A stretch of DNA of 63,689 nucleotides, from the IMG/VR virus record IMGVR_UViG_3300029951_000027, one strand, 5' to 3'. The notes under the pieces were generated by a model. The model made no database searches. It was given only the letters and a program-made list of their open reading frames with translations, and was not told where the DNA came from. The position numbers were made by a program, and so were the translations under genes. This DNA comes from a virus. Position 1 is the stretch's first letter; every line of letters starts with the position of its first letter. Shown here one piece after another: positions 1 through 60,515 of this stretch.

Positions 1-127
1 CGTTCAGGCGTTGTGCCGGCATCAAGCTGTGGTACAGTTGCTGGACAACCAGGAGCAAACATGAGCGGCAATAGCTATCGAAGACGTCTTAAGAAGGCCG
101 AACGCAAGGGCTTTGTGCAAGGCTGGC
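1..127. repeat. Terminal direct repeat copy A, identical to 63563..63689. It indicates a circular-assembly overlap or a short terminal redundancy, and the unique length is 63562 bp.
   Basis: Read directly: bases 1-127 recur verbatim as the last 127 bases of the window. Confidence 0.95.
11..38 (+). promoter_or_regulatory. Candidate sigma70-type promoter TTGTGC-16 nt-TACAGT
   Basis: The hexamers at 11-16 and 33-38 have a 16-nt spacer. They lie about 20 nt upstream of AGGAG (51-55) and the ATG at 61. The site sits in the divergent intergenic region opposite the minus-strand gene 63347..63520. Confidence 0.3.
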
Positions 128-5311: not shown

Positions 5312-5521
5312 ATGGGCAGCAATCGTCTTGGATTCCTTCTCGCTGCCGTACTGTGCCGGGCAGTCGATTATTATCATCTGTCGCGTGAGGTTGCAGAAGA
5401 CCTTGCCGAAGGCATGGGCGGCACGCAACTGGACCACGCACAAGGCTACCTTCGCTTGCGTGAACACGAACTCGGCAAAGCCATCGGCGCCGCTGTTGAA
5501 GAACTCAAGGAACTCAAGTGA
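5312..5521 (+). CDS. hypothetical protein (69 aa)
   Basis: The ATG at 5312 lies 1 nt after the upstream stop. It is the in-frame part of track ORF 5192..5521. Confidence 0.45.
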   Translation: MGSNRLGFLLAAVLCRAVDYYHLSREVAEDLAEGMGGTQLDHAQGYLRLREHELGKAIGAAVEELKELK

Positions 5522-6279
5522 TCCACGCCAACCCTAACCAGATCGCCGTCCTAGACCACGGTTTCGTCAAGCTGCGCAACCTCGCCGGGCCGACGCGGCG
5601 TCACTGGGACATCAATATTGCAAGCCTTGACCAGCGTCCAATGCTTCGCCCCTTCGACGCTGACGACACCGACGTCGCCAACGCGGCTCGCCTGTCGTTC
5701 GAAGGCCAGGACCAGGAGCGCGGCTACGACGCCGAGATGAAGCTGACGCGCTACCTCGCGCAGCACCACCACGACACGCCGTTCGAGATCATCGAAGTGT
5801 GGCTCGAGATGAAGCTGCCGATCTTCGTGGCCCGCCAGTTCGTGCGCCAGCGCACCCAGACGATCAACGAGGCCAGCGGCCGGTACATCACGCTTCCTGA
5901 GCAGTGGTACATCCCGGCCGTCGTGGGCGGCAAGGCACCAAACGCCAAGCAAGGCCAGGAAGACAACCTGGACGAAGTCACGCAGGGCTGGTTCCGCCAA
6001 GAGCTCAACATGGACTGCGAGAACGGGTATGCGCTGTACAAGATGGCGTTGGCTCGCGGCGTGGCACCGGAGCATGCCCGCATGTTCCTTCACGTCAACC
6101 ACTACACGCACTGGATGATGAAGATGAACCTACGGAACCTGATGTTCAGTTTCCTGCGGCTTCGTTACCACAGCCACGCCCAGGTGGAAGCGCAAGCGTA
6201 CGCCAAAGGCACGTTCGAGCTCATCGAACCGCACCTGCCGGGCCTGATGAAGATCTACCAGGAATTTATCGCGCAATGA
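5518..6279 (+). CDS. thyX: flavin-dependent thymidylate synthase ThyX-like
   Basis: The ThyX layout is present: LDHGFVKL, DVANAARLSF, TPFE, and a signature region RQFVRQRTQTINEASGRY that deviates from the canonical RHRxxSxNExSxRY. The GTG start overlaps the upstream stop. Confidence 0.75.
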   Translation: MIHANPNQIAVLDHGFVKLRNLAGPTRRHWDINIASLDQRPMLRPFDADDTDVANAARLSFEGQDQERGYDAEMKLTRYLAQHHHDTPFEIIEVWLEMKLPIFVARQFVRQRTQTINEASGRYITLPEQWYIPAVVGGKAPNAKQGQEDNLDEVTQGWFRQELNMDCENGYALYKMALARGVAPEHARMFLHVNHYTHWMMKMNLRNLMFSFLRLRYHSHAQVEAQAYAKGTFELIEPHLPGLMKIYQEFIAQ

Positions 6280-6389: not shown

Positions 6390-6800
6390 ATGGAACCAGA
6401 CGACATCCGCAACGTTGCCCCCGAAGAGCTGGCGCGCCGCAACGCGGCAGCCCAGGCGGTCATCGCTAAGTCGAAGGCGATGTTCGAGCGCATGCAGCGT
6501 GCCCGCGCGCCGCTGCCTACAGGGCTCAGTGATGCCCGCACGCTGGCCCTGCTGCACGGTGGCATGCGAGAACGCGTGGCAACGTCCACGTTCAGAGGGC
6601 GGCAGGCGCCGTCGCATCTGTACATGCTGCCGTGCTTTGCTGAGCGGGTGCCACTGAACGATATGCAGGCTGCGGCGCTCATCACTTTCCTCAACCGTGG
6701 CCGCATGGCGCGCGCCGGCCAGCTCGCGCCGCGATCGGTGCAGCAACAGGCGTTCGACGACGCAGCGGCAAGCCAGGAGGCCAGTAATGAGCCCATTTGA
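6390..6800 (+). CDS. hypothetical protein
   Basis: 136-aa ORF with an ATG start. Confidence 0.55.
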   Translation: MEPDDIRNVAPEELARRNAAAQAVIAKSKAMFERMQRARAPLPTGLSDARTLALLHGGMRERVATSTFRGRQAPSHLYMLPCFAERVPLNDMQAAALITFLNRGRMARAGQLAPRSVQQQAFDDAAASQEASNEPI

Positions 6801-7728
6801 ACAGGCGTTCTTCGACAGGCAGAAGCCCATGCTCGCCTGTGACTGGGACGCGAAGAAGCTCTGTTTTCCGCAGTGGGTGCAGCCGAAGATCGACGGCGTC
6901 CGTGCCCTCAACTTCAAGGGTGTGCTGACGGGCCGTTCGTTCAAGCGGCACAAGAACAAGTTCACTACGGGGTTCTTCACGCACGACCTCACGCTGGGCA
7001 TGGACGGCGAACTGGCAAGCTGGTCAGAGACCGCTCCGGACCTGTGCCGGCGCACAACCAGCGCGGTCGGTACCATCGAAGGCGAGCCCTACTCGCTGTG
7101 GTGGCTGTTCGATTTCATTCAACTGGATGGCGCAGAACTGTCCTACTGCGAACGGTACGCGCGGCTGCAAGACCGGATGGCGACGCTGCAAGTGAACGAA
7201 CCGTTGCTGTGGTCACGTTTGCGGCTGGTGCCGTACAAGGTGGCATATAACGTCGACGACATCGAAGCTATTGACGCGCAATACCTCGAGCTAGGATACG
7301 AAGGATCTATCCTTCGCAATCCTTACGCCCAGTACAAGTCTGGTCGATGCACGCCGACCGAGTCCAACCTGTCGCGTATCAAGCGGTTTAGCGAGGAAGA
7401 GGCTACGGTGACCGCGCTGGTCGAAGGCAACATGAACGGCAATCCGGCTACGGTCAATGAGCTGGGGCAGACCGAACGCAGCTCGCACCAGGACAACATG
7501 ATTCCGAACGGCCAAGTCGGTGCGCTGCTGTGCAAGGACTTGAAGACGGGACAGGACATCACGGTGGCTGCCGGCTGCATGACCCATGCCGAGCGGCTAC
7601 ACTACTTGGCTCACCCCGGCGAGATTGTCGGCAAGGTAATCAAGTTTAAGACATTCGCCCACGGCAAGAAGGACAAGCCGCGCTTCCCCACGTTCCAAAG
7701 CCTGCGGGCAGAGAGCGACATGTCATGA
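6787..7728 (+). CDS. lig: ATP-dependent DNA ligase
   Basis: Motif I is QPKIDGVR (KxDG), with EGSILR and LLCKDL downstream. The start was set at ATG 6787. Confidence 0.8.
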   Translation: MSPFEQAFFDRQKPMLACDWDAKKLCFPQWVQPKIDGVRALNFKGVLTGRSFKRHKNKFTTGFFTHDLTLGMDGELASWSETAPDLCRRTTSAVGTIEGEPYSLWWLFDFIQLDGAELSYCERYARLQDRMATLQVNEPLLWSRLRLVPYKVAYNVDDIEAIDAQYLELGYEGSILRNPYAQYKSGRCTPTESNLSRIKRFSEEEATVTALVEGNMNGNPATVNELGQTERSSHQDNMIPNGQVGALLCKDLKTGQDITVAAGCMTHAERLHYLAHPGEIVGKVIKFKTFAHGKKDKPRFPTFQSLRAESDMS

Positions 7729-7977: not shown

Positions 7978-8811
7978 ATGAGCTTCCTTCAGCAAGTCAC
8001 AAGGGGTCCTTCCCGTGCCGGTATTCGCGTCGTCGTTGCGGGTCTCGAAAAGATGGGCAAGTCGACGTTCTGCGCCGGTGCGCCGGGTGTTCTGTTGGTA
8101 CCGTTGGAAGTCGGCTACGCAGGTCTTACCTGTGACAAGACCCCGATGATCCAGACGTACGAAGACTTCATGCTGTTTCTGCAGGAAGTGACGACCATGG
8201 CCCAGCGCGGCCAGTTCGCATACCGTACCATCGCCTTTGACAGCGCCACGGCCCTCGAGCGCATGATTCACGACTACGTGCTGCGCATCGACACGGCCAA
8301 GACCAAGACGAGCACGATGGAAAGCGCTCACGGTGGCTACGGCAAGGCGTACACGCTGTCGAACACGATTTTCGACACGGTACTGAAGACACTTGACCAA
8401 CTAGCAGTCTACGCTGGCATCAACACCGTCTTCACCTGCCACGTCTTCTCGAACAAGGTGTCTGATCCGACGGCCGGCGAGTATGACAGCTGGGACCTGC
8501 TGTTGCACAGCCCGAAGAATAGCAAGACGTACGGCAAGAGGGAACTGATGACGCAGTGGGCTGATGTGATTGGCTTCCTGTACGAACCCGTCTTTCTGAT
8601 CAGCAGCGATGACAAGAAGGGCATGACTCGTGCCACTTCGCAAAACAAGGGTCGTATGCTGGCCCTGTCCCGTACGCCGTCGTACACGGCGGGCAATCGC
8701 TTCGGCATCATGGGCGAGGTGGCATTGCCGACCCCGCCCAACAATGCCTGGAACGCGTTTGCGCACGCCTTGTACACGACGTGCGGAATCGATCTGTACA
8801 CGCGCACTTGA
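7978..8811 (+). CDS. AAA_24 / Sak4-like RecA-fold ATPase
   Basis: A Walker A motif GLEKMGKST lies near the N-terminus. Its position directly upstream of a DUF669-type gene is the usual pairing. Confidence 0.7.
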   Translation: MSFLQQVTRGPSRAGIRVVVAGLEKMGKSTFCAGAPGVLLVPLEVGYAGLTCDKTPMIQTYEDFMLFLQEVTTMAQRGQFAYRTIAFDSATALERMIHDYVLRIDTAKTKTSTMESAHGGYGKAYTLSNTIFDTVLKTLDQLAVYAGINTVFTCHVFSNKVSDPTAGEYDSWDLLLHSPKNSKTYGKRELMTQWADVIGFLYEPVFLISSDDKKGMTRATSQNKGRMLALSRTPSYTAGNRFGIMGEVALPTPPNNAWNAFAHALYTTCGIDLYTRT

Positions 8812-8870
8812 ATCAAAATGCGGTAAGTCATGGGCACCGCTCTTAAGCCCTAGAAAAAGGAGAATGCCCC

Positions 8871-9620
8871 ATGGGCGTCGTAATCAACTTCGACAGTACG
8901 TCTGTCGTCCCGTCGACTGGCGTCATGGACGCCATGCCTGCCGGCTGGTATATCGCGGCAATGGATCAGTCCGATTCCAAGCCCACCAAGGACGGCAGCG
9001 GCATGTATCTCGAGCTGCGCTTCGACATTCTCGACGGCCAGTACAAGGGCCGCAAGGTGTTCGCGCGTCTAAACGTGAAGAACAACAATCCGCAGGCGGT
9101 CGAGATTGCATACAAGGATCTCGCCGCCATCTGCCATGCTGTCGGCGCTGTCGGGCTGGTGCAGTCTACCGACATGCTGCACGGCCGCCCGCTGAAGCTG
9201 AAGCTCAAGGTTCGCCCGGCAACCGGCGAGTACGAAGCGAACAACGAGATCTCCGCGTATCGCAACGTCAATGACCAGACGGCTGTCAATGGCGCTGCTG
9301 CGGCCGGTCAGGCTGTCAACCCCGGCATGCCTGCCAACTTCCCGCCCCCGGCACAGACGGGCAACTGGGCACCCGCACAGGGCGGCCAGCCGGCCCCGCA
9401 GCAAGGCTATGCGCCCCCGCAGCAACCGGCTCAAGGGCAACCCAGCTACCAGCCGCCGCAACAGCCCCAGCAGCCCGCCCAGGGTCAGCAGTGGCAACAG
9501 CCCCAGGGCGGCCAGCCGTGGCAGCCCCCGCAGCAACCGGTCCAACAGCCGCAACAGCAGTTCGCACAGCCGCAACCCGGCGGCAACCCGGCCGCGAACC
9601 AGCCGCCGCCCTGGGGCTGA
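8871..9620 (+). CDS. DUF669-type (SSB-like) protein with Gln/Pro-rich C-terminal tail
   Basis: GGAG lies upstream. The N-terminal ~140 aa resemble the DUF669 family, and the C-terminal ~100 aa are QQP/QPQ low complexity. Confidence 0.6.
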   Translation: MGVVINFDSTSVVPSTGVMDAMPAGWYIAAMDQSDSKPTKDGSGMYLELRFDILDGQYKGRKVFARLNVKNNNPQAVEIAYKDLAAICHAVGAVGLVQSTDMLHGRPLKLKLKVRPATGEYEANNEISAYRNVNDQTAVNGAAAAGQAVNPGMPANFPPPAQTGNWAPAQGGQPAPQQGYAPPQQPAQGQPSYQPPQQPQQPAQGQQWQQPQGGQPWQPPQQPVQQPQQQFAQPQPGGNPAANQPPPWG

Positions 9621-13753: not shown

Positions 13754-13873
13754 GTAGACGGGATGTAACAAGTTGTAATATCGGCTTGTGTGGTTGTCAA
13801 GAGCTCTATACAGTGCAACTCATCCGGCTGCAACCGCTGCCGGTGTAACCCGCCAATCACTGGAGTACCCACC

Positions 13874-14776
13874 ATGCAAGCTCAAGCGCAAACCCTGATT
13901 CATCCGGTCATCCACTTCAAGCCGCAAGCCAAGTCGAACGCCAAGCGTTTTCTGGTCAAGACCAGCAAGGTCGCCGAAGACGATGTGCCGCTGTACCTGA
14001 CGCAAGTCGACGGCGAATGGGGCACGTACACCAACGAGGCCGGCGAGCCGATCAAGATCGACAAGCTGGCGGGTGCCGTGGATCGTTCGATCATGCGCGA
14101 AATCGAGGCACACGTTTCGCCTGCGCAGGCTGCCGCCGAAGCGCGGGTCAATGCCCCGGCAATCACTACAGCTGACACGCCGGTCACCGTGCAAGCGGCT
14201 ACCGAAGGCGTCGAGCACGCCATCCCCGACGCGCCGGCTGCCATGGGCGGCTTCAGCGTGTTCAGCGCCCTCGGTGGCGCCCCCGTGCCCGCCGCTGCCA
14301 CGGCTGCCAGCACCGTCGTGCGCGACGGCAAGGTGGTCGACCCCGACGCCCCTGCCGAACGCACCGACAAGGCTGTGCAAGCCGGCGATACGTGCCCGCT
14401 GTGCGGTGCCGACCACGCCAAGCAAACCGCCGCCAACGAGGGCGTGAGCCAGACCTGCGGCGGCTGCGGCAAGACCTACAGCATGGCGACGGGCCGCGAG
14501 GTGCGCATCGGCTACAAGCGCGATGACGTCAATCGCGGCTACACCATCGAAAAGAACCGCGCCGAGCAAAACGGCGTGAAGCGACCGAGCGCAGGCACCC
14601 TGTGCGGCCAAGTGTGGGCCGCCCTGGACGCGGTGCACGCCACGCACATGCCGGTCGCCGCCGATCTCGACACCATCGCCACGGTCAACAACTGGAACCG
14701 GAACAACGTGTCGTGCGAGTTCTACCAGTGGCGCAAGTTTATGGGCATCAAGGGTCGCCAAGTCCGCGCCAAGTAA
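13874..14776 (+). CDS. hypothetical protein with Zn-ribbon and shared C-terminal module
   Basis: ATG 13874 follows GGAG. CPLCG...CGGCG is present, and the C-terminal QNGVKRPSAGTLCGQVWAALD...EFYQWRKFMG is paralogous to 15664..16323 and 24186..24506. Confidence 0.6.
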   Translation: MQAQAQTLIHPVIHFKPQAKSNAKRFLVKTSKVAEDDVPLYLTQVDGEWGTYTNEAGEPIKIDKLAGAVDRSIMREIEAHVSPAQAAAEARVNAPAITTADTPVTVQAATEGVEHAIPDAPAAMGGFSVFSALGGAPVPAAATAASTVVRDGKVVDPDAPAERTDKAVQAGDTCPLCGADHAKQTAANEGVSQTCGGCGKTYSMATGREVRIGYKRDDVNRGYTIEKNRAEQNGVKRPSAGTLCGQVWAALDAVHATHMPVAADLDTIATVNNWNRNNVSCEFYQWRKFMGIKGRQVRAK

Positions 14777-15663: not shown

Positions 15664-16323
15664 ATGAACCACCCGCAACACGCGCAGGCCGCTGCGCCGG
15701 CTTCGCAGCCGATCCCCGAACAACTGGCCGCCCAGAAGGCCGCAGCCGACGCGCAAGCCAAGGCCGATGCGGCTGCCGCGAAGCAGGCCGAGAAGGACGC
15801 CAAGGCGAAGGAGAAGGCCGAGAAGGCTGCCGCTGCCAAGGCCGAAAAGGAAGCCGCTGCCACCAAGAAGGCCGCCGACGCGCAAGCCGCAAAGGACGCC
15901 AAAGCTGCGGAAGCCAAGGCGAAGGCAGACGAGATCGCGAAGAAGAAGGCTGACGCCGAAGCCGCCAAGAAGGCCAAGGAAGATGAGAAGGCCGCCAAGG
16001 CGCAGAAGAAGATCGACGACGCGGCTGCGGCCAAGGCCGCCAAGGAAGCGGCGCGCCAGCCCGAGCAGAACGGTGTCCGCCGGCCGGGTCCCGAGGGCCT
16101 GTGCGGCAAGGCGTGGGCCGTGTTCGACGCCGAGTCGAAGCGCCTGGGCCAGCCGGTCACCATCGGTGACGCGCTGAAGGTCGGCGAACCGCAGAGCCTC
16201 AACGCGGGCAACATGCGCACCGAATACGCGCGCTGGAAGAAGTTCCATGGCCTGACCGGCGCGGTCGCCAAGCCCGCTGCCGCCCCGGTGCCGGCTCCGG
16301 CTGCTCAAGGCGCCACGGCCTAA
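15664..16323 (+). CDS. Ala/Lys/Glu-rich histone-H1-like protein with shared C-terminal module
   Basis: About 110 aa of AKKA/AEKA-type repeats are followed by QNGVRRPGPEGLCGKAWAVFD...EYARWKKFHG. Confidence 0.6.
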   Translation: MNHPQHAQAAAPASQPIPEQLAAQKAAADAQAKADAAAAKQAEKDAKAKEKAEKAAAAKAEKEAAATKKAADAQAAKDAKAAEAKAKADEIAKKKADAEAAKKAKEDEKAAKAQKKIDDAAAAKAAKEAARQPEQNGVRRPGPEGLCGKAWAVFDAESKRLGQPVTIGDALKVGEPQSLNAGNMRTEYARWKKFHGLTGAVAKPAAAPVPAPAAQGATA

Positions 16324-16356
16324 GAGCCTGCGGTACACTGGTACCGCGCAACAGGG

Positions 16357-16384
16357 CAAAGGCGCTTCGGCGCCTTTGTTTTTG
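16357..16384 (+). terminator. Rho-independent terminator
   Basis: The stem CAAAGGCGC-TTCG-GCGCCTTTG is followed by TTTTT. Confidence 0.6.
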
Positions 16385-16426: not shown

Positions 16427-17170
16427 ATGCAGCTGAACAGTCAGCCCATGGAACACATTGATGTCGCGTCGGGAGACGTACTTGATGTCCATTCTATCTT
16501 CTACACCCTGCAAGGTGAAGGCCCCTTCACCGGCCGCCCCGCAGTGTTCATTCGCTTGGCGGGCTGCAACTTGCAGTGTCCAGCCTGTGACACGGACTAC
16601 ACCAGCGGGCGTGAGAAGCGAAGCGTGACCAGCATCATTGCCGGCGTACACAACGCGGCACCCGACAGGGCAGCGCGACCACTTGTGGTCATCACGGGCG
16701 GCGAGCCTTTCCGTCAAAAGATCTACGGCCTGTGCCACGACCTTCTGCGCGAAGGCTACACGGTGCAAATCGAAACGAATGGCACGTTGCCGCCACCCAA
16801 CCCGGTATTCGGAGATCTCTGTTCGACCGACTTGACGGACGAGAACGTGATCTTCATCGTATGCAGCCCCAAGACGGGTCGCGTCAATCGATACCTGGAA
16901 CCACTGGTGGCCGCGTACAAGTACGTTCTCGATGCCGACAGCGTGAACGATGACGACGGTCTGCCGATTCTGGCCCTGGGCCACACGGCCCACCCGCACG
17001 TCGCCCGGCCGCCTGTTGGCTTCCTGGGGCCGGTGTACTTGCAGCCGGCCGACATGCAAGATGAGGCACTGAACAAGCGCAACCGTCAAGCCTGTGTCAT
17101 CCTCGCTATGAACGCACCGGACCGTTTCACGGTTCAGCTTCAGACACACAAGATCCTCAATCTCGAATAA
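16427..17170 (+). CDS. queE: 7-carboxy-7-deazaguanine synthase (radical SAM) QueE
   Basis: The CNLQCPACD (CxxxCxxC) and GGEP motifs are present. ATG 16427 follows GGAG. Confidence 0.85.
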   Translation: MQLNSQPMEHIDVASGDVLDVHSIFYTLQGEGPFTGRPAVFIRLAGCNLQCPACDTDYTSGREKRSVTSIIAGVHNAAPDRAARPLVVITGGEPFRQKIYGLCHDLLREGYTVQIETNGTLPPPNPVFGDLCSTDLTDENVIFIVCSPKTGRVNRYLEPLVAAYKYVLDADSVNDDDGLPILALGHTAHPHVARPPVGFLGPVYLQPADMQDEALNKRNRQACVILAMNAPDRFTVQLQTHKILNLE

Positions 17171-17179
17171 GGTCACCAC

Positions 17180-18580
17180 ATGTGTTCAATCATTGGTGCA
17201 GTCTTGTACCGTCAAAGCGGGCTGCCTTGGGAATTGGAATCGCTGCTGCGTGTCACCTGGGGTAACAGCCTGCGCCGGGGTCGCGACGGGCGCGGGTTTG
17301 TGGCTCGTACTACCGATATCGAAGGCCGCGTCAAAATAGGGTTGAAACGGTCCGTCGTTCGGCGCGAGCATTTCCCGGACATCTACCCGCACATCCCGCC
17401 GTTCACCACGTCGTTTGACATGGTGGGCAACCAGCGGGCGGAGCCGACTACCGAGTTTGTCCAAGACAAGCAAGAGTTCGATCAGCAGCCGTATTCGCAC
17501 AGTGGTTGGCATGTTGTGCACAACGGCACTATCGCCAACGACAAAGAGCTGCGTACGGGTGACGTGCCCACAAGCATCGACAGCGCGGCTATCGTCGAAG
17601 TGCTGGCAAGCGTGTCGCCGAACACAACGGCCTTCGCCAGTGCGATCCGGAAGTTGAAGGGTTCGTATGCAATCCTTGCGATGCATGACAGCCTGCCGGG
17701 CGTCATGTTTTCAGCCTGTAACTACCGCCCTATCTGGTACGTGCAGACGCCAAGCGGCTTTGTGTTTGCTTCAGAACGCGGTGCATTCCCACAAGGTTAC
17801 GTTCCGCAGATGCTGCGACCGTACAGCGTGGCGACGTTCGGGTGCACGGGCACGGTCGAACGCGTTGCGCTGCTGGAACCTGTCGTTGACGGCGAAGCCC
17901 GCAAATCGCTCAAGACAGCGCTGGTCGTGTGCAGCGGCGGCCTGGACAGTGTGGTTAGCGCGGCGGCCATGCAGAAGCGGGGCTATGAGCTTCACCTGAT
18001 TCACTTTCAATACGGGTCGCGTGCGCAAACGCCCGAGCTAGAAGCGGTGCGCAAAGTGGCAAAGCACTTGGGGGCTGACTTCGACATCGTGCCTCTGCCG
18101 ATTTACCGCAAGCAAGACAGTCCGCTCCTGGACCCCGACAGCAAGGTGGCAGGCGGCGAGGCGGGCGCCGAATTCGCGCACGAGTGGGTGCCGGCACGGA
18201 ATACGGTGCTGCTCGCCATGGCGGTCGCATTTGCCGAAGCCAGGGGCTACGAAACGATCGTGCTGGGGAACAACCTGGAAGAAGCCGGGGCGTACCCCGA
18301 CAACGAACCGGAGTTCATTGCCCGCTGGAACGATCTGCTGCCGTTCGCTGTGGGTGACGGCAAACGCATGCGCATCGAGATGCCTGTCGGCAACATGATG
18401 AAGCACGAGATCGTCGCACTGGGGCACGAGTTGGACGCGCCCATGGACATGACGTGGTCGTGCTACAGGGCCGGGGCGCTGCACTGCGGGTCGTGTGGGC
18501 CGTGCTACATGCGTCGGAAGGCGTTCGCGATCAACGGGCTTCCCGAAGTGATCAACTACCAGGATGAGCAAGATGTATAG
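17180..18580 (+). CDS. queC: glutamine amidotransferase-QueC fusion (Gat-QueC)
   Basis: The N-terminal MCSIIG is a Cys2 Ntn amidotransferase signature. The QueC PP-loop CSGGLDS is present, with a C-terminal Zn site C-x8-C-x2-C-x2-C (WSCYRAGALHCGSCGPC). Confidence 0.85.
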   Translation: MCSIIGAVLYRQSGLPWELESLLRVTWGNSLRRGRDGRGFVARTTDIEGRVKIGLKRSVVRREHFPDIYPHIPPFTTSFDMVGNQRAEPTTEFVQDKQEFDQQPYSHSGWHVVHNGTIANDKELRTGDVPTSIDSAAIVEVLASVSPNTTAFASAIRKLKGSYAILAMHDSLPGVMFSACNYRPIWYVQTPSGFVFASERGAFPQGYVPQMLRPYSVATFGCTGTVERVALLEPVVDGEARKSLKTALVVCSGGLDSVVSAAAMQKRGYELHLIHFQYGSRAQTPELEAVRKVAKHLGADFDIVPLPIYRKQDSPLLDPDSKVAGGEAGAEFAHEWVPARNTVLLAMAVAFAEARGYETIVLGNNLEEAGAYPDNEPEFIARWNDLLPFAVGDGKRMRIEMPVGNMMKHEIVALGHELDAPMDMTWSCYRAGALHCGSCGPCYMRRKAFAINGLPEVINYQDEQDV

Positions 18581-19019
18581 ATCGACTAAGACGTATGGGC
18601 ATGACCTGGGCCTGTCCGCCTGCTTCCGCCAGTGGCGAGCTCAGTCGCACTGCAACCTTTTGCATGGGTACGCGCTGGCGTTTACCATCACGTTCGACTG
18701 TGACAAGCTTGACGAAAATGGGTGGGTGATGGACTTTGGCGCACTGAAGCCTGTCAAGACGGAGATCGAACGGCTATTTGATCACACTGTGCTTGTTGCG
18801 TGCGATGATCCTGAACTGAATCGATTCGTGGCGCTGAACAACGCCGGTATGATTCAGTTAGTCGCTGTTCAGCGCACGGGGTGCGAAGCTTTTGCCAAGC
18901 TGGTATTCGACAACGTGACCACATGGCTGCGCAGCTACCAGAAGGGTCGTGTGCGAGTGGTGTCGGTTGAATGCAAGGAACACGGCGCGAACAGCGCCAT
19001 CTACATTGGAGGCAATTGA
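18564..19019 (+). CDS. queD: 6-carboxy-5,6,7,8-tetrahydropterin synthase QueD
   Basis: The N-terminus (STKTYGHDLGLSACFRQW...HCNLLHGY) is PTPS/QueD-like. It overlaps the queC end, and the start could be 18564 or 18573. Confidence 0.8.
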   Translation: MSKMYRSTKTYGHDLGLSACFRQWRAQSHCNLLHGYALAFTITFDCDKLDENGWVMDFGALKPVKTEIERLFDHTVLVACDDPELNRFVALNNAGMIQLVAVQRTGCEAFAKLVFDNVTTWLRSYQKGRVRVVSVECKEHGANSAIYIGGN

Positions 19020-19600
19020 TGAACGCACCGTACGAGAAGCCGCCGACTGTCAATGAGCAGATTATCTATGACGTGCTGGCGCACCTGTGCGGCGAGAACC
19101 CCGAACGGGGTGGTCTGAAGGACACGCCGGCCCGTGTGGTCAAGGCGTGGGAATTCTGGACAAGCGGCTACGGCATGAACGCGGCAGACATCCTCAAGAC
19201 GTTTGAGGACGGTGCCGAGGGTTGCGACCAGATGGTCATTCGCAAGGACATCCCGTTCTACTCGCACTGCGAGCACCACATGGCCGCCATCTTCGGAACA
19301 TGTACCATCGCGTACATCCCGAACGGGCGTGTGGTTGGCCTGTCAAAGATGGATCGCCTGTGCGAGATGTTCATGCGCCGGCTGCAAGTACAGGAAAGAG
19401 CGACCAACCAGATCGCCGATGCGATGATGGAGCACCTCATGCCGACCGGCGTGGGCGTGTACATCAACGCCCGTCATATGTGCGTGGAATCGCGTGGCGT
19501 GCGTAACGGCAACAGCGCGACAATCACGACGGCACTGCGCGGTGCGTTCCTCAACGAGCCGGCAACAAGAGCAGAGTTTCTCGCGGCAGCTCGCGGGTAA
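19019..19600 (+). CDS. folE: GTP cyclohydrolase I FolE
   Basis: GLKDTPARV and the YSHCEHHMAAIFG active-site region are present. The ATG overlaps the queD stop. Confidence 0.85.
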   Translation: MNAPYEKPPTVNEQIIYDVLAHLCGENPERGGLKDTPARVVKAWEFWTSGYGMNAADILKTFEDGAEGCDQMVIRKDIPFYSHCEHHMAAIFGTCTIAYIPNGRVVGLSKMDRLCEMFMRRLQVQERATNQIADAMMEHLMPTGVGVYINARHMCVESRGVRNGNSATITTALRGAFLNEPATRAEFLAAARG

Positions 19601-19609
19601 AATGGCGCC

Positions 19610-20533
19610 ATGAACCTCTACTGCGCTGCTGTCTACACGAATAACTATAGAGCCGGACAGCGGCAGTACCAGCATTTCAACGAGCGTGAACGCGAGTGTG
19701 TCGACGGTGTTCCCCACATTCTCGAATCGTTTCACTACGTGGGCAAGCAGAGTTTCGTTGACGATATGCGAAAAGATGGAGCGAAGATCTTCCTGGACTC
19801 CGGCGCCTTCTCGTCCTTCACCCAAGGCGTTGCGCTCGACGTGCGCGTGTACTGCGATTACATCAAGCGCAACATGGATATCATTCGCTTCGACGATGGG
19901 GTGATGATGGCGTCCGTGCTCGATGCGATTGGCGACCCATTGGAGACGTACCGCAACCAGCTTTGGATGGAAAGCCTGGGCGTGCGCCCGCTGCCTTGTT
20001 TCCATGCCAACGAAGACGAACGGTACCTCGAACACTATGTCAAAAACTACGAGTACATCACACTCGGCGGTATGGTGGGTGCCAGTTCGAAGCAACTGAT
20101 GAATTGGCTGGACCGTATCTGGGACCGGTACCTTGTGGACGGCGCAGGGCGCCCGCGCTGCAAGGTGCATGGGTTCGGTATCACAGCCGTGCCAATTATG
20201 CAGTCATACCCTTGGTGGAGCTGCGATTCGTCGTCGTGGATTCAATCGACCTCGTTCGGCACCATTGTGACACCTGACTGGGGCCCGATCGCAGTGAGCG
20301 ACAAGTCGCCCAGCCGGCACGACGCCGGCCAACACATCACGACGTTTAGCGAAGTGGAGCGCCAAGCCATAATTGCCAAGCTGGCCGAGCAGGGCTACGA
20401 CTGGGAGCGTCTTGCTACGGTGTACCAGTCGCGGGCGGCCTTCAATTTATGGGCATACTGCGAGTTGAACAAACGAATGAACGTTGAGAACGACTACACG
20501 CAGATGACGCGCGTCAAACAGGAACTGTTCTGA
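19610..20533 (+). CDS. dpdA: DpdA-type (TGT-like) DNA guanine transglycosylase
   Basis: The 307-aa protein has a FLDSGAFS motif that I recall from DpdA. It is the last gene of the deazapurine operon. The family assignment rests on recollection and context. Confidence 0.7.
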   Translation: MNLYCAAVYTNNYRAGQRQYQHFNERERECVDGVPHILESFHYVGKQSFVDDMRKDGAKIFLDSGAFSSFTQGVALDVRVYCDYIKRNMDIIRFDDGVMMASVLDAIGDPLETYRNQLWMESLGVRPLPCFHANEDERYLEHYVKNYEYITLGGMVGASSKQLMNWLDRIWDRYLVDGAGRPRCKVHGFGITAVPIMQSYPWWSCDSSSWIQSTSFGTIVTPDWGPIAVSDKSPSRHDAGQHITTFSEVERQAIIAKLAEQGYDWERLATVYQSRAAFNLWAYCELNKRMNVENDYTQMTRVKQELF

Positions 20534-20534
20534 A

Positions 20535-20735
20535 ATGAGCACCGTACCAATCGTCGCCAGCACCAAGCCCGACCCGAAGATTTATTGCAACGATGGGTGC
20601 AAGCGCGGCATGTTGCCAACTGAGATCGAATCGTCTGGCTGGCAGCTTCTCCAGATTACTCAGCGGTACAGGTGCGTAGACTGCTGCCGCGAGCTGCGTG
20701 AAGCAAACGAAAGGCACGGAAATGGAAACCGATAA
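20535..20735 (+). CDS. small Cys-rich protein
   Basis: 66 aa with CNDGC...CVDCC. Confidence 0.45.
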   Translation: MSTVPIVASTKPDPKIYCNDGCKRGMLPTEIESSGWQLLQITQRYRCVDCCRELREANERHGNGNR

Positions 20736-21012
20736 GCAACTGCGTGATCTGAAGATACAAAAACTTCAGGACCGCAGCCGCGAACAGAAACGCCGCATTG
20801 CCGCCGGCGAAATGCTTGTCTGTACGCAAGACAATCCTATTTCTGGCGAACGCGACGCGATGACTGGCAAGCCTGTTTATCATAAAGACGCTAGGCCAGG
20901 GCCGGACCACGACATACTTGCTATGACGTCAATCTCGGTCTGCCCGCACTGTAAAACCAACGTCACGATCCATCGCAGGTTCTGGGATTACGAAAAGAAA
21001 GATTGGAGATAA
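20722..21012 (+). CDS. hypothetical protein (96 aa)
   Basis: ATG 20722 lies within track ORF 20698..21012. A C-terminal CPHC is present. Confidence 0.5.
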   Translation: METDKQLRDLKIQKLQDRSREQKRRIAAGEMLVCTQDNPISGERDAMTGKPVYHKDARPGPDHDILAMTSISVCPHCKTNVTIHRRFWDYEKKDWR

Positions 21013-21013
21013 C

Positions 21014-21973
21014 GTGCTGGCTGAGCTTAAGTTTGTGATGGGAGCGGTGTCCAAGAAGGATCTGATTCCGTCGATGGCCCACTTCGCGATCGACGGGGGC
21101 CGCGTACGGGCTTACAACGGCGTCGTTGCGCTGTGCAGCCCCATAGCCCTTGATCTGGAGTGCAAGCCCCGTGCAGAGCCCATGGTGCGAGCCATAGGCC
21201 ATTGCAGCGAGACGGTAACGCTGGCCCGCACGCCGGCCGGCAAGCTAAGCATTAAGAGCGGCACCTTCCGCGCTCTAATCGAGTGCCTGCCAGACGAACA
21301 AGTGACACCACATGTCGAGCCTGAAGGTGATGTGGTGGAGATCAACGGCGCGGCGCTGCTAGAAGCATTCAAGGCGTGCTCGCCCTTCGTCGGCAACGAC
21401 GCTTCCCGTGCCTTCAGCAACGGCATCCTTCTTAAGGAGGGTTCCGCCTTTGCGACGAACAACGTGATGGCGGTGCAATATTGGGTCGGCCACGCGCTGC
21501 CCCATGTGGTCAACATACCCATGAAGTGCGTGCAAGAAATGGTTCGCATTGACGAAGCGCCTGTCAGCGCGTTGTTCGCGGCCAATAGCATCACTTTCCA
21601 CTACACGGGTGACCGTTGGATTCGCACGCAACTGCTGAACGTCGAGTGGCCCGACATCACGAAGATCTTGGATCGCGAGTCTAACGCCACACCGATCGAC
21701 AAGGAACTGTTTGCAGCCATCGCCAAGGTCAAACCATTCCTTGACAAGTACGGCCGCATTTATTTCCACGAGGGTGCTGTGTCGACACATGCTGACCACT
21801 CCGAGGGCACGTACGTGGAAATTCCTGGGTTCGCGAACGCTGGCATCTACCGTCACGAATACCTTGCGCTGCTGGAAGACACGGCAGAACGCATCGACTG
21901 GACAACGTACCCCGACCCTTGCATGTTCTTCGCTCCGCGCCTGCGTGGCGCCATCATCGGAGTTCACAAATGA
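21014..21973 (+). CDS. DnaN-like sliding clamp
   Basis: The three-part beta-clamp-like pattern (LKF..GAVSKKDLIPSM, SAFATNNVMA, YRHEYLALLED) and the position upstream of the polymerase support the call. It is shorter than bacterial DnaN. Confidence 0.55.
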   Translation: MLAELKFVMGAVSKKDLIPSMAHFAIDGGRVRAYNGVVALCSPIALDLECKPRAEPMVRAIGHCSETVTLARTPAGKLSIKSGTFRALIECLPDEQVTPHVEPEGDVVEINGAALLEAFKACSPFVGNDASRAFSNGILLKEGSAFATNNVMAVQYWVGHALPHVVNIPMKCVQEMVRIDEAPVSALFAANSITFHYTGDRWIRTQLLNVEWPDITKILDRESNATPIDKELFAAIAKVKPFLDKYGRIYFHEGAVSTHADHSEGTYVEIPGFANAGIYRHEYLALLEDTAERIDWTTYPDPCMFFAPRLRGAIIGVHK

Positions 21974-22095
21974 TTCGACAAGCCATTCCCCGGCCTGTGC
22001 AACAGCCGTCACCCGTGTGCCCGTGGTGCGGTTGCACCTTCAAGTTCGTCTCATACGGACGCCATAAAGAACACTGCCCCAAGCGGCCGAAGTGA
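21970..22095 (+). CDS. small C2HC zinc-ribbon peptide (41 aa)
   Basis: It has an ATGA overlap with the clamp stop and its stop overlaps the polymerase GTG. CPWCGC...HKEHC is present. It is below the ORF-track cutoff. Confidence 0.35.
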   Translation: MIRQAIPRPVQQPSPVCPWCGCTFKFVSYGRHKEHCPKRPK

Positions 22096-24128
22096 GAAAA
22101 GACGCAATCGGCTTTTTCTGGGCCGATCACGAGAAAGAGAAGGCGGCTAAGAAAGTCGTCGAAAAGCGTACGCCCCCCGCCCGCACCTGGGAAGCTGCGG
22201 GCTACCTGCCGGGGCTTGAAGAGGCGCAGCGCTTCAATGTCGATCTGTTTACGTGGGAAGAGTTGTTCGCGGCTGCAATCAACCGTGAAGAGCTATTGTT
22301 CGACTTAGAGGTCTACCCGAATTATTTTCTGGCGGCCTTCTGTTCATACAAGTCCGGCAAAGTGATCTATTGCGAAGGCACACCAGACAACCCGCTGGAT
22401 GTGCAGAAGTTGCGTTGGCTGATGGAGACGTTTACCACCGTCGGCTTCAACTCGATCCCGTTCGACATGCCTATCACCGCAATGGCGGTGGCCGGTTGCA
22501 CCAATACGCAACTGAAGCAAGCGACGAACATGATCATCGTCGAAGGCATGCAGCGCCAAGACGTGCTGAAGCACTTCAAGGTCAAGAAGCTTAAAGGTTG
22601 TGACCACATTGATCTGATTGAAGTGGCGCCGCTCAGTGCCAGCCTGAAGATCTACGGCGGCCGGCTGCATGCGCCTAAGATGCAAGACTTACCGTTCCAT
22701 CCGGACACAGAACTGTCGCCCGAACAAATTGCTATCGTTCGTTTCTACTGCGTCAATGACCTGACGACTACCGGTTTCCTGCGCAAGTGCTTGGACGAAG
22801 CGGTGCAACTCCGTGTTCAGATGAGTAAGGAATACTGTGTAGACCTGCGTAGCAAGTCAGACGCACAGATTGCCGAAGTAGTGATTGCCGACGCCGTGGG
22901 CCGCATGAACGGGTACCGGCCCACCAAGCCAAGCATCGCAATCGGCACGACGTATTACTACGACGTGCCGCACTTCTTGCAGTACAAGTCGGCACTCATG
23001 CAATGGGTGCTGGAACAAGTGCGTCAGACGCCTTTCGTTGTCGGCGAACATGGTTCCATCAACCTGCCGCAGCACTTGGCAGACATGGAAGTCCGCATTG
23101 CCGACGGCGTATACCGCATGGGGATTGGGGGCCTGCACAGCAGCGAGCACACGGTCAGCTATAAGACCGACGACACGCACAGCCTGCACGACTTCGATGT
23201 CGTGTCGTTCTACCCCAAGATCATCATCAACCAAGGCTTGTACCCAGAGCACTTGGGCAAGGCGTTCTTGCATGTGTTCAAGGACCTTGTTGACCGCCGC
23301 ATTGCCGCTAAGGCTGCCGGGCGCAAGGGTGAAGCGAACAGCCGCAAGATTATTATCAATGGAACCTATGGCAAGCTGGGGTCGAAGTACAGCATCTTGT
23401 ATGCGCCGAAGCTGCTAATCCAAACCACTCTGACGGGTCAACTGGTGCTGTTAATGCTTATTGAGCGTATGGAGATGGCAGGTATTCGTGTGGTCAGCGC
23501 GAACACCGACGGCATTGTGCTGCACTGCCCGCGCGACAAGCACGAGCTTATGCATGCCATCGTGACGCAGTGGGAACGCGACACCAACTTCGAGACCGAA
23601 GAGACCAAGTACGCGGCCCTGTACTCGCGTGACGTGAACAACTACATTGCGGTCAAGCTGGACGGTACCACCAAGAACAAGGGGGCGTTCTTTAACCCGT
23701 GGACGGCCGACACCAAGGACCCCACCGAGAAGCTGAAAAAGAACCCGTCGACGCAGATTGCGATCGAGGCCGTTGAAGCATTCCTTGTCAAGCAGACTCC
23801 GATCATTGACACTATCAAGGCGTCAACTGACCCGCGCAAGTTCGTTAGCGTGCGCACTGTCAACGGCGGCGCAGTGCATGATGGCGAGTACCTAGGCAAG
23901 TCTGTGCGTTGGTACTACTCCACTACGCCACGCGGCGAGATGGTGTACGCAAAGACCGGAAACAAGGTGGCGCGCAGCGATGGGGCCTGCCAACTGCTGA
24001 CTTTGCCGCAAGCTTTGCCGCAAGATGTGGACTTTGACTGGTATGAACGGGAAGCGTTTGACATGCTTTCGGATCTTGGCTACTCGGCAGGTAGTTTGAG
24101 CGTTAAGGATAGTTTGCAACCGCACTAA
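22092..24128 (+). CDS. family B DNA polymerase with 3'-5' exonuclease
   Basis: Exo motifs are I FDLEVYPNY, II GFNSIPFD and III YCVNDL. Pol motifs are A DFDVVSFYPKII, B KIIINGTYGKLG and C ANTDGI. Confidence 0.85.
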   Translation: MRKDAIGFFWADHEKEKAAKKVVEKRTPPARTWEAAGYLPGLEEAQRFNVDLFTWEELFAAAINREELLFDLEVYPNYFLAAFCSYKSGKVIYCEGTPDNPLDVQKLRWLMETFTTVGFNSIPFDMPITAMAVAGCTNTQLKQATNMIIVEGMQRQDVLKHFKVKKLKGCDHIDLIEVAPLSASLKIYGGRLHAPKMQDLPFHPDTELSPEQIAIVRFYCVNDLTTTGFLRKCLDEAVQLRVQMSKEYCVDLRSKSDAQIAEVVIADAVGRMNGYRPTKPSIAIGTTYYYDVPHFLQYKSALMQWVLEQVRQTPFVVGEHGSINLPQHLADMEVRIADGVYRMGIGGLHSSEHTVSYKTDDTHSLHDFDVVSFYPKIIINQGLYPEHLGKAFLHVFKDLVDRRIAAKAAGRKGEANSRKIIINGTYGKLGSKYSILYAPKLLIQTTLTGQLVLLMLIERMEMAGIRVVSANTDGIVLHCPRDKHELMHAIVTQWERDTNFETEETKYAALYSRDVNNYIAVKLDGTTKNKGAFFNPWTADTKDPTEKLKKNPSTQIAIEAVEAFLVKQTPIIDTIKASTDPRKFVSVRTVNGGAVHDGEYLGKSVRWYYSTTPRGEMVYAKTGNKVARSDGACQLLTLPQALPQDVDFDWYEREAFDMLSDLGYSAGSLSVKDSLQPH

Positions 24129-24185: not shown

Positions 24186-24506
24186 ATGCAACTGACTAAC
24201 GCAACCGAAAAGCGCCTCGAACGAGCTGTCATGGACCGGCTCAAGCATGTCATGGAACCTGCCGTGCGCTCGGCGCTCATGGAAGTTTTGCACGGCGGGC
24301 GCCGTACGCAGAACGGAGTGCAAGAACCTGCGCCCGGCAAATGCCGCGACGTGTGGGATGCCCTGGACGAATTTGCCAACCCTGTTCAAGTGAGCCTCGC
24401 TGACGCGCTGGCCGTTGCCATGGACAAGGGTTTCAACCCGAATAACGCGCGCATCGAGTTCTACCGCTGGCGTACCTTCAACGGGTTCGGCAAGGAAACA
24501 CACTGA
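24186..24506 (+). CDS. hypothetical protein consisting mainly of the shared module
   Basis: QNGVQEPAPGKCRDVWDALD...EFYRWRTFNG aligns with the C-termini of 13874..14776 and 15664..16323. Confidence 0.6.
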   Translation: MQLTNATEKRLERAVMDRLKHVMEPAVRSALMEVLHGGRRTQNGVQEPAPGKCRDVWDALDEFANPVQVSLADALAVAMDKGFNPNNARIEFYRWRTFNGFGKETH

Positions 24507-36305: not shown

Positions 36306-37796
36306 TTAGCGGTTGACGTTGATCAGGATGTCCACGGTGTGGATCGCGCCAGCCAGCTTGGCAGCGACTTGGAAGGTAACGGACTTGCGGGCCGCACGAT
36401 CCGTGGGGTTCTGGCTGGCAATAGGCGGTGCGTAGACGTAGTATCCATTCGGCAGGAAGTCGCCGGTCGCCAGCGTGCCGAAGCCGGTCTGGTTCCAGAT
36501 GCCCGGTGCGAGCAACCCATTGTTGACGTATGCCGACAGGCGGGCCGAGATTACGTTGACGATGCTGTGGTTGCCGGCATCCGTTTGCGGAATCTTGGTG
36601 GGACTGGTATAAAGGAAGTTGTAGACGTCCGACTGAATGTCCAGTGCCAGCGCGTCTGTACCAATCACGGTATCAATGAAGTCGCCCGAAGCACAGAGAC
36701 CCGGTTCAATGATGGCAGTGTTATTGTTGTACGCCACGAAGACATTGCAGTTCTTGGCTTCGAGCGCACTGATCTGCGAAACGTTCATGTTCTCCGCCAC
36801 GATGCCCGGTTCCTGCTTGTACATCAGCGTGATGACCGAGTTGTTCGCGGTATAGTCCGTCGTCAAGATGCGCGCCAGCATAGAGACCACGGCATATGGG
36901 TTGGAACTGCTGTACTGCGTAGCGGTATGGCGGTATCCTGCCTGATTGAGCAGATACGGAATGGACGTCGTGTCCGTACTATTGAGAACAGCCGCCTCTT
37001 GTGTGGTCACACCGAAGAAGTGGCGGTTCTCGCTACCTTCAATGTACGGAGCGATTGCCAGGGTATCGGCGTCCACGCTGCCCAGCACGGTCACGGCGTA
37101 CCAGATTTGCCCGTAGTTGCTGTCAAACAGTGTCACAGCCGCCAGCGCCGTTTCGGCCACCGCGCCTTGAGCCGTGTAGGCGCCCAGGGCCGCCGTCATG
37201 CAGGTCAGCGCGCTGATGTCGGTGCCGCCCGTGCCTGCCGTGACGAAGCCAACAGTGGCGCCCGCGCCGGTAGCGGTGCTGGTGAGCTCGAAACGCTGGA
37301 AGGATGCGTTCCAGACGATGGTTGCCGCCACCGACGCGCCGGTCAAGGCCGTCTGGATAATGGACGCCACACCGTTGAGATTGGTGGCGCCACTGAAGTT
37401 CATCGCCGTCAGCGACGTGACCGTGCCGCCGACGCTGACGTGCAAGGAACCGTTCGTGATGGCGTTCCACGTCGCGATCAGTTGGTCCGCCGCAGGCAGC
37501 TCTCCACCGCGCAAGTACGCAGGCGATGCCGACTGCACCCAGCGGCCAATCAGCAGGCTCGTCGGTTGCGGAAGCTGTTCGAACCACAGCAGAGCAGCAA
37601 GGTACTCCGGCGCGGTCGTGCCGAAGTCGGTCGCCACTTCAGACAGGCCGTTGTAGACACGGTACCGTTCCGTCGGATCGATCGTGGCCGACGAACCCAG
37701 GATCAGGAGCTGCGACGTGTTCTGTGCGGCGGCACCACCGGGCGTAAGGTTGACCGACGTGCTGATCAGCCGGCTGATGGGAAGCGAAGCGGTCAT
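36306..37796 (-). CDS. contractile tail sheath protein (DUF3383-like)
   Basis: 496 aa, immediately upstream of the tube gene. Confidence 0.7.
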   Translation of the reverse strand: MTASLPISRLISTSVNLTPGGAAAQNTSQLLILGSSATIDPTERYRVYNGLSEVATDFGTTAPEYLAALLWFEQLPQPTSLLIGRWVQSASPAYLRGGELPAADQLIATWNAITNGSLHVSVGGTVTSLTAMNFSGATNLNGVASIIQTALTGASVAATIVWNASFQRFELTSTATGAGATVGFVTAGTGGTDISALTCMTAALGAYTAQGAVAETALAAVTLFDSNYGQIWYAVTVLGSVDADTLAIAPYIEGSENRHFFGVTTQEAAVLNSTDTTSIPYLLNQAGYRHTATQYSSSNPYAVVSMLARILTTDYTANNSVITLMYKQEPGIVAENMNVSQISALEAKNCNVFVAYNNNTAIIEPGLCASGDFIDTVIGTDALALDIQSDVYNFLYTSPTKIPQTDAGNHSIVNVISARLSAYVNNGLLAPGIWNQTGFGTLATGDFLPNGYYVYAPPIASQNPTDRAARKSVTFQVAAKLAGAIHTVDILINVNR

Positions 37797-52288: not shown

Positions 52289-52744
52289 TCAAATGCGGTC
52301 AATCTCTCCAGCGGCGATTTTGTATTCAGCCCAGTTCGAGAACCAGATCTTGAATGCTTCGATATCGATGGTGGCGCGGACCTGCTGCATGCGCTGGTTG
52401 CCCATCGGGATGAAAGTGTTCATGACCACATGCCACGCCTTGTTATTCTGGCGATAGATGAGGATCGGCTCTTCGTTGTTGCGTTCGGCGCTGGCGCACG
52501 CCTGCCGCCACCATTCAGGGATAGCGAGTGTCTCCTGCCGCTTGACTTCGAAGGCCAACCCGAAGCAGCTAATGTCGCCGCCGCCGACGGCCGACTGGTT
52601 CTGGTTGCGTTGTACGAGCTGGTGCAAGGCGACCATCGTTTCGCCGTCGTACTGGTGTTTGTGCATGAGCAGATAGATCTCGTGACGCAGCATGTTCGCC
52701 ACATCTCGTTCACCTTGCTTACCTTTGTTTTGTGCGTGGACCAT
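52289..52744 (-). CDS. PD-(D/E)XK nuclease, Hjc-like Holliday junction resolvase candidate
   Basis: GKQGERDVANML...GGGDISCFGLAFEVKRQ gives an E..D..EVK arrangement. The start at 52744 forms a TAATG overlap. Confidence 0.6.
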   Translation of the reverse strand: MVHAQNKGKQGERDVANMLRHEIYLLMHKHQYDGETMVALHQLVQRNQNQSAVGGGDISCFGLAFEVKRQETLAIPEWWRQACASAERNNEEPILIYRQNNKAWHVVMNTFIPMGNQRMQQVRATIDIEAFKIWFSNWAEYKIAAGEIDRI

Positions 52745-60505: not shown

Positions 60506-60515
60506 TCGATTCTCC

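Follow-up and report, generated by a model that had tools for sequence, protein, structure and literature searches.

The IMG/VR virus record IMGVR_UViG_3300029951_000027, an uncultured phage whose 63,689 nucleotides were analysed in full and are referred to here as the window, carries five adjacent plus-strand genes encoding QueE, a Gat-QueC fusion, a QueD homologue, FolE and DpdA. This set very likely constitutes a functional system for 7-deazaguanine modification of DNA. The phage-encoded pathway is predicted, with good confidence, to exchange a fraction of the phage's own guanines for a 7-deazaguanine, most likely 2'-deoxyarchaeosine (dG+), and in this way to shield the genome from restriction. 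As the main product, dG+ is the probable one, judging from the architecture of Gat-QueC. The genes present, their domains and catalytic residues, the predicted DpdA fold, synteny and the absence of other tailoring enzymes were all established on this genome.

A preliminary description of the same DNA, made from its letters and open reading frames (ORFs), had named these five genes, their positions and a set of diagnostic motifs. The ORFs and their translations confirm the coordinates on the plus strand, and CNLQCPACD, MCSIIG, SGGLDS, the C-terminal four cysteines and CEHH are all present. Hidden Markov model searches with Pfam, NCBIfam and PHROG, which that description had recommended, agree on all five families, DpdA being assigned by PHROG.

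Predicted modification pathway

In the proposed route, FolE would convert GTP to dihydroneopterin triphosphate, which the QueD homologue would turn into 6-carboxytetrahydropterin (CPH4) and the radical S-adenosylmethionine (SAM) enzyme QueE into 7-carboxy-7-deazaguanine. The QueC domain of Gat-QueC, an ATP-dependent PP-loop enzyme, would then yield preQ0. After replication, the TIM-barrel protein DpdA is predicted to flip guanine out of duplex DNA and to swap in the deazapurine, with D206 as the nucleophile and D63 as the general acid/base. The N-terminal nucleophile (Ntn) amidotransferase domain, with Cys2 as its putative nucleophile, would supply ammonia for conversion of the nitrile into the formamidine of G+. 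This last step may precede or follow insertion, as it may in phage 9g, the reference case. What each enzyme does, which base results and the role in protection are predictions carried over from homologues.

Gat-QueC and the predicted base

The reading of the second gene as an Ntn amidotransferase fused to QueC holds for both domains. Pfam detects QueC (2e-56) and, in the N-terminal half, GATase_7 (5e-08), each above the Pfam cutoff. TIGR00364 QueC scores 150.8 bits against a cutoff of 150.3, and PHROG 10428, the Gat-QueC family, matches over the full length at 4e-193. A search of the isolated Gat domain as a single sequence against the PDB gave no match, and a profile was needed. From its first residue onward, that profile could be aligned to GFAT1/GlmS and PurF. 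In the alignment to GFAT1/GlmS, C2 corresponds to the Cys1 nucleophile, R86 to the arginine of TRWATHG, N115-G116 to the HNG oxyanion hole and D134 to the aspartate of ETDTE. The roles of Cys1, Arg, Asn-Gly and Asp are established for Ntn amidotransferases. All of these catalytic residues are kept; their loss had been named in the preliminary description among the grounds for rejecting its interpretation.

In an alignment with six family members of 54-72% identity to the Gat-QueC of the window, C2, R33-G-R-D-G, R86, H114-N115-G116 and D134 are invariant, as are the PP-loop SGGLDS and the zinc-site residues C428/C436/C439/C442. In total, 150 positions, about one third of the protein, do not vary among the six. 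The QueC domain aligns to both solved QueC structures (PDB 2pg3 and 3bl5), including the cysteine cluster. A full-length homologue occurs in 66 GenBank phages. The NCBIfam model QatC also touched the C-terminus, at 27 bits against a cutoff of 280, and was set aside as a match to the Cys-rich tail only.

The assignment of dG+ builds on the likeness to 9g, whose Gat-QueC is 51% identical and collinear over the full length (E 1e-170). In 9g, DpdA alone gives dPreQ0 in plasmid DNA, and with Gat-QueC added the product is dG+, at 9-18% of G, a result obtained in a ΔqueC host too (PMC6884629). The rule in the field, experimental for 9g, is that Gat-QueC in place of QueC leads to dG+ (PMC6884629). Other tailoring routes have no visible counterpart here. 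A Pfam scan with concatenated queries, covering the predicted proteins of at least 60 amino acids across the whole 63.6-kb genome, found no QueF, QueF-L, ArcS/DUF5591, methyltransferase or formyltransferase. For DpdL, DpdM and DpdN, which have no dedicated models, absence was judged by the fact that no domain of a methyltransferase, formyltransferase or decarboxylase turned up. The preliminary description had likewise noted no QueF-like gene and had proposed a dG+-type genome; the first point is borne out genome-wide, with only subthreshold cross-matches on FolE, and the second gains support from the 9g-like Gat-QueC and the lack of another tailoring enzyme.

Several points nevertheless count against dG+ as the product. 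With metagenome assemblies (ENA ERZ27248672, JGI 3300030746) as the source of the sequence, it stays a prediction. Direct measurement of dG+ is confined to 9g-type phages, and an identity of 51% leaves room for a change of function in the Gat domain. The QueC of phage iggy carries an unusual extension, and its product is unchanged, strictly dPreQ0 (PMC10484667). An alternative would be an active pathway whose base is dPreQ0, or a mixture of dPreQ0 and dADG, with Gat only feeding ammonia to the QueC reaction. That reaction, from carboxylate through amide to nitrile, itself requires ammonia. The DpdA enzymes tested to date insert preQ0 (PMC10516641), the step that forms G+ is not settled in 9g either (PMC6884629), and the limited identity to the 9g fusion and the atypical yet dPreQ0-producing QueC of iggy lean the same way. 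On the other hand, the same architecture in 9g yields dG+ almost exclusively, even in the ΔqueC host, and the window protein shares with 9g Gat-QueC both full-length collinearity and a family core of invariant positions. The Gat-QueC fusions from phages and from archaea moreover form one cluster linked to G+ (PMC6884629). On balance a dPreQ0-type product appears unlikely, and dG+ is retained as the predicted base.

The extent of modification can be estimated from relatives. Escherichia phage CAjan carries dPreQ0 at GA and GGC motifs (PMC7544227). In the window genome, 19.9% of G lies in a GA context, as would apply to an iggy-like enzyme, and 29.7% in GA plus GGC, as for a CAjan-like one. With either specificity, DpdA would target roughly 20-30% of G, within the range measured for relatives, and if the prediction of dG+ is true this fraction would carry it. 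Such DNA would resist most type II restriction enzymes and be mis-called by nanopore sequencing, which would be relevant to the cloning, sequencing and engineering of such phages.

DpdA and the target of modification

DpdA belongs to PHROG 887, the DpdA/TGT family (6.5e-85), where TGT denotes tRNA-guanine transglycosylase. Over its 307 residues it is 68% identical to the enzyme of the Pseudomonas putida phage MiCath, 62% to that of 9g and 59% to that of CAjan, with no indels before residue 225. The CAjan enzyme has a pocket formed by S64, F67, D105, H132, G153, G154 and F189, with D206 as the nucleophile and D63 as the general base (PMC7544227). All nine residues are invariant, with the same numbering, in alignments of 5, 7 and 34 sequences. 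The family is abundant, as more than 3000 metagenomic proteins match DpdA and the top 120 do so at 64% identity or higher.

A TGT-like protein could in principle act on tRNA. The cluster would then serve a queuosine- or archaeosine-type modification of the wobble position or D-loop and tune translation, leaving DNA unmodified. The fold is compatible with this idea: an AlphaFold2 model (predicted local distance difference test, pLDDT, 77.9; predicted template modelling score, pTM, 0.76) retrieved only tRNA-guanine or archaeosine transglycosylases among its top 50 Foldseek matches in the PDB (probability 0.99-1.00; TM score normalised to the query, TMq, 0.43-0.52). Relatives in GenBank are also often labelled 'queuine tRNA-ribosyltransferase'. 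At the level of sequence, however, Pfam, with its TGT family (PF01702) included, gives no match to DpdA, and neither the single sequence nor a seven-sequence profile matches any solved structure in the PDB. The chain is shorter, at 307 residues, than the bacterial and murine TGT chains (about 340-380) and the archaeosine TGT (about 577), whereas it shares 59-62% identity with enzymes shown to modify DNA.

Function and context speak for the same conclusion. The 9g dpdA gene does not complement an E. coli Δtgt mutant (PMC6884629). The phage has no tRNA genes, neither tRNA nor tmRNA genes having been found anywhere in the window, and dpdA sits between nucleotide-precursor and replisome genes. Modification of tRNA is therefore regarded as extremely improbable. 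DpdA also falls outside the NCBIfam equivalog for the bacterial enzyme, NF041059, with 16.2 bits against a cutoff of 200. It is thus a TGT-fold protein of the DNA-modifying DpdA1 group, neither a tRNA TGT nor a bacterial DpdA equivalog. The preliminary description had called it TGT-like and had named grouping with tRNA-specific TGTs among the grounds for rejecting its interpretation; instead, the protein groups with phage DpdA1.

Early pathway enzymes and a QueD variant

FolE clears its curated cutoffs by a wide margin. Pfam GTP_cyclohydroI matches at 5.4e-64 (215 bits, cutoff 27), NCBIfam NF006825 at 218 bits (cutoff 174) and the PHROG for GTP cyclohydrolase at 4.9e-72, and the CEHH motif is present. 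QueF models produced signals on this protein as well (Pfam, 26.5 against 27.3 bits; NCBIfam QueF-II, 32.1 against 86.9), which were rejected as T-fold cross-matches, because the two families share T-fold ancestry. QueE matches PHROG 2076, a QueE-like family, at 2.9e-49 and Pfam Radical_SAM at 7e-07 (30 bits, cutoff 29.5). Its CX3CX2C motif, C47/C51/C54, is invariant, and the protein is 51% identical to 9g QueE. Both queE and queD of 9g complement the corresponding E. coli deletion mutants (PMC6884629).

The third gene departs from the textbook pattern. Its product matches Pfam PTPS at 1.7e-19 (70 bits, cutoff 22) and the QueD-like PHROG 2389 at 1.4e-42, the same PHROG that holds the QueD proteins of 9g, CAjan and NP1. 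The preliminary assignment as QueD therefore stands as far as PTPS family and gene position are concerned, whereas the canonical form does not. In alignments with E. coli QueD (PDB 4NTM) and the proteins of 9g, CAjan and NP1, the catalytic residues C30, H34, D73-H74 and E139 are retained, with the motif C30-x3-H34-G-Y36.

Some of these results weaken the proposed pathway at its QueD and QueE steps. Of the three histidines that canonically bind zinc, the QueD homologue lacks two (F21 stands in place of E. coli H16 and Y36 in place of H33), and its NCBIfam score of 47 bits lies under the QueD equivalog cutoff of 89. Its CPH4 synthase activity is inferred from position and family. The best NCBIfam matches of QueE are all QueE models, yet each lies under its equivalog cutoff. 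The replaced ligands and the low equivalog score would suit a partly defunct cluster, in which the QueD variant is inactive, host QueD is used or the pathway is idle. Against such decay, the variant motifs are invariant: in 31 members of the family at 54-79% identity, F21, H29-C30, H34-G-Y36, D73-H74 and E139-H140 do not change, and H13 is nearly as constant. The family comprises 3668 proteins, some of them on bacterial chromosomes.

Selection and context agree with a working gene. Relative to the sister phage L013, the ratio of nonsynonymous to synonymous substitution rates (dN/dS) of the QueD homologue is 0.22. The catalytic Cys30, D73-H74 and E139 are maintained, and the same gene occupies the exact QueD slot in MiCath, in L013 and in the closest relative, L006. 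MiCath DNA resists EcoRI, BamHI and EcoRV (PMC10710427). A defunct cluster is therefore very improbable, and we infer that the homologue catalyses the QueD reaction through a changed metal site.

A further reading leaves the 9g pathway behind, placing the novelty either in a PTPS subfamily of distinct function or in the small ORFs downstream of DpdA discussed below; it is rated as quite unlikely. For the enzyme, this reading draws on the motifs TKTYGH, F-R-Q, S-H-C-x3-H-G-Y and E-H-G-A-N-S. The metal site may be rewired, with H13 and H29 standing in for the canonical first and third histidines. The protein may then have another metal dependence or another pterin product and feed a non-textbook 7-deazaguanine pathway.

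Locus organization and small downstream ORFs

The locus is compact (Table 1). QueE and Gat-QueC are separated by 9 nt, Gat-QueC and the QueD homologue overlap by 17 or 8 nt depending on the QueD start, the QueD stop and FolE start share 1 nt in TGATG, FolE and DpdA are 9 nt apart, and a single nucleotide separates DpdA from the next ORF, orf66. Gene calls made independently on the source contigs recovered the same set, with both small ORFs (66 and 96 amino acids) among them, and placed the QueD start at the ATG equivalent to 18573. Third-codon-position G+C of 0.67-0.75 supports the five frames over long shadow ORFs on the opposite strand. All five genes are under purifying selection relative to L013, with dN/dS of 0.16-0.24.

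Table 1. Features of the modification locus and the adjoining replication genes (positions in the window)
Feature	Position	Strand	Description
Intrinsic-terminator-like hairpin	16354-16384	+	11-bp G+C-rich stem, UUCG loop, T-run
QueE	16427-17170	+	Predicted radical-SAM 7-carboxy-7-deazaguanine synthase, 247 aa
Gat-QueC	17180-18580	+	466 aa; amidotransferase ~aa 1-235, QueC ~aa 244-466
QueD homologue	18573-19019	+	148 aa; alternative ATG at 18564 gives 151 aa
FolE	19019-19600	+	Predicted GTP cyclohydrolase I, 193 aa
DpdA (DpdA1 subfamily)	19610-20533	+	Predicted DNA guanine transglycosylase, 307 aa
orf66	20535-20735	+	Small four-Cys zinc-ribbon-like protein
orf96	20722-21012	+	Small basic protein
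Sliding-clamp-like processivity factor	21014-21973	+	PHROG 947, 5.7e-65
Family-B-like DNA polymerase	22092-24128	+	PHROG 1252, 1.2e-200

Upstream of the cluster, the terminator proposed in the preliminary description could be read directly as GGCAAAGGCGC-TTCG-GCGCCTTTG followed by a T-run. It ends the upstream gene 43 nt ahead of the QueE start. The 111-nt region around it folds at -44 kcal/mol (z = -2.75), a stability reached in none of 200 shuffles. No sigma-70-like promoter was found between hairpin and QueE. A consensus terminator scanner reported no plus-strand terminator up to 28.5 kb, which is weak evidence, as the same scanner did not report the hand-verified hairpin.

On that limited evidence, no detected punctuation separates the five genes from those for the clamp and the DNA polymerase. 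The description as a complete operon is accurate for five tightly packed genes and fails for a free-standing unit. Like its counterparts in every relative compared, the modification cluster lies within the replication module. The order QueE-(Gat)QueC-QueD-FolE-DpdA-clamp-DNA polymerase is common to NP1, the Nonagvirus ChristophMerian, MiCath, CAjan and 9g, and the locus is not a chance pattern because this order recurs in all five.

The two ORFs between dpdA and the clamp gene had been described as small and Cys-rich and as possible accessory factors. Both are real genes, although only orf66 is clearly a four-Cys protein. Its cysteines, C18, C22, C47 and C50, are all conserved in its single homologue among 5.8 billion proteins, which lies at the same position in L013 (55% identity, dN/dS about 0.27). 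In orf96, C34 and C74-x2-C77 are conserved relative to the L013 homologue (49% identity). A search of 1.84 billion representatives gave four matches to this protein, of which two are likewise small and of its type, and there was no family match in Pfam, NCBIfam or PHROG. A tblastn search against phages found no homologue of either.

A role as conserved accessory factors was ruled out by that search and by the absence of both ORFs from L006 (DpdA 85% identical), where the clamp gene directly follows DpdA; both occur in L013 only. orf66 is also absent from NP1, 9g, CAjan and MiCath. The junction holds no ORF in 9g, NP1 and ChristophMerian, and other small ORFs of unrelated sequence in MiCath, CAjan and L009. 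The DpdA-clamp junction is thus a variable insertion spot, and orf66 and orf96 are lineage-restricted genes. As the second form of the quite unlikely reading introduced above, the two proteins, translationally coupled to dpdA, might tune the sequence specificity of DpdA or its coupling to the replisome. The FolE-DpdA junction is an insertion spot as well, with an 80-aa ORF in L013 (3826-4068) and an HNH homing endonuclease in NP1 (8790-9233); in the window it holds only the 9-nt gap.

Genome context

The first 127 bases of the window (1-127) are repeated exactly at 63563-63689, which is consistent with a circularly closed assembly and a genome that is complete at about 63,562 bp; the source contig measures 63,703 bp. 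G+C varies between 53 and 65% along the genome, and Pseudomonas and Xanthomonas are the hosts of the nearest relatives in culture. A virion module of the contractile-tail (myovirus) type, as judged from Pfam, spans 28211-51392 on the minus strand. It includes a DUF3383 sheath-like protein (36306-37796, 8e-126), a KPP10_Orf10 tube, Baseplate_J, an E217 gp41 hub, a Pam3 gp18 plug, an SLT-domain tape measure, a PF09950 capsid protein, a portal and a T4-type terminase. Also on the minus strand, near the genome end, two large Gly/Thr/Ala-rich ORFs of 588 and 337 amino acids (58739-61529) have no Pfam match; set apart from the main tail module, they resemble tail-fibre or receptor-binding proteins.

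Metabolism genes upstream of the modification cluster, at 5518-6279, 6697-7728, 7978-8811 and 8871-9620, encode ThyX (Thy1, 1.4e-36), an ATP-dependent DNA ligase, an AAA_24 (Sak4-like) protein and a DUF669 protein resembling single-stranded-DNA-binding proteins, in the same order as in 9g. Three proteins around the locus (13790-14776, 15664-16323 and 24186-24506; PHROGs 11298 and 18634, with no function assigned) have in common a C-terminal domain of about 65-70 amino acids centred on QNGV(R/K)RP...G..C..VW..LD...F..W+.F.G. The protein at 15664-16323 has an Ala/Lys-rich, TolA-like N-terminal half. Homologues lie upstream of QueE in NP1, ChristophMerian, MiCath and L009. Farther along, a protein with a Lar-like restriction-alleviation domain (56620-56880, 3e-08) would be a second anti-restriction function beside DNA modification. 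A DUF3850 (ASCH-like) protein (55492-56364) and a PDDEXK_15 nuclease (52289-52825) are also encoded.

Comparison with known systems

Enterobacteria phage 9g (Nonagvirus) encodes the same five proteins in the same order, with DpdA, Gat-QueC and QueE at the identities given above and with conserved catalytic residues. It differs in an extra ORF between QueE and Gat-QueC, in a DpdA-clamp junction free of small ORFs, and in a canonical QueD with CxxxHGH that is only 24% identical to the window protein. Nonagvirus lies within Queuovirinae, a siphovirus subfamily. The window genome, with a G+C content of about 59%, has a contractile-tail module instead.

MiCath, an unclassified myovirus of about 61 kb, is the closest cultured relative. 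In addition to its DpdA, its Gat-QueC (52-54%) and its QueD (47%, with the same HGY variant) resemble those of the window, and the module order is the same. Its myovirus morphology (PMC10710427) fits the sheath, tube and baseplate genes described here. The similarity is confined to the protein level, with no megablast match, and in MiCath one small ORF separates Gat-QueC from QueD and an unrelated 68-aa ORF follows DpdA.

Among named phages, the best Gat-QueC match (55%) is found in the Pseudomonas phages NP1 and PaMx25 (Nipunavirus, Queuovirinae), which share the gene order and have DpdA at 62%, the clamp at 57% and the polymerase at 53% identity. In NP1, an HNH endonuclease gene is inserted at the FolE-DpdA junction, FolE is longer and QueD is canonical. 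CAjan (Seuratvirus) has the same overall module order, whereas its QueC is plain, without a Gat domain, and a putative preQ0 transporter is present. When the locus was compared by megablast with 50,697 phage records, the sole match was 404 bp at 76.5% identity, in PaMx25 queC, so that none of them is a close relative at the nucleotide level. The modification and replication module is thus syntenic with that of the siphovirus Queuovirinae, whereas the contractile-tail virion module and the near absence of nucleotide similarity place the genome outside this subfamily.

More distant systems use related chemistry. The DpdA/B/C system of Salmonella Montevideo carries out the same type of reaction, G to preQ0 in DNA, with a TIM barrel and two catalytic aspartates (PMC10164549). 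The bacterial Dpd products, dADG and dPreQ0, amount to less than 0.1% of G and serve defence, not counter-defence. Neither a DpdB-type ParB-fold ATPase nor a DpdC-like protein was recognised in the Pfam and NCBIfam scans of the window. Archaeal Gat-QueC, which acts with the archaeosine TGT (arcTGT), shares the fusion architecture, and the chemistry proposed for it, from the preQ0 nitrile to formamidine, is likewise the same. The archaeal target is instead tRNA position 15, and arcTGT is a multidomain protein of 577 aa (TM 0.51, normalised to the query).

The pathway, the enzymes and the anti-restriction role are already published for 9g, CAjan, iggy and others, and the locus is a further example. 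Metagenomes contain very many members of the DpdA1 and QueD-variant families, over 3000 in each case. Only the QueD variant and the two zinc-ribbon-like ORFs specific to the lineage are slightly out of the ordinary. No new question on 7-deazaguanine biology is raised, and the sole biochemical point touched is a QueD variant that lacks two canonical zinc ligands. Together with MiCath, which already documents the combination, the window places a Queuovirinae-type modification and replication module on a contractile-tail chassis as well.

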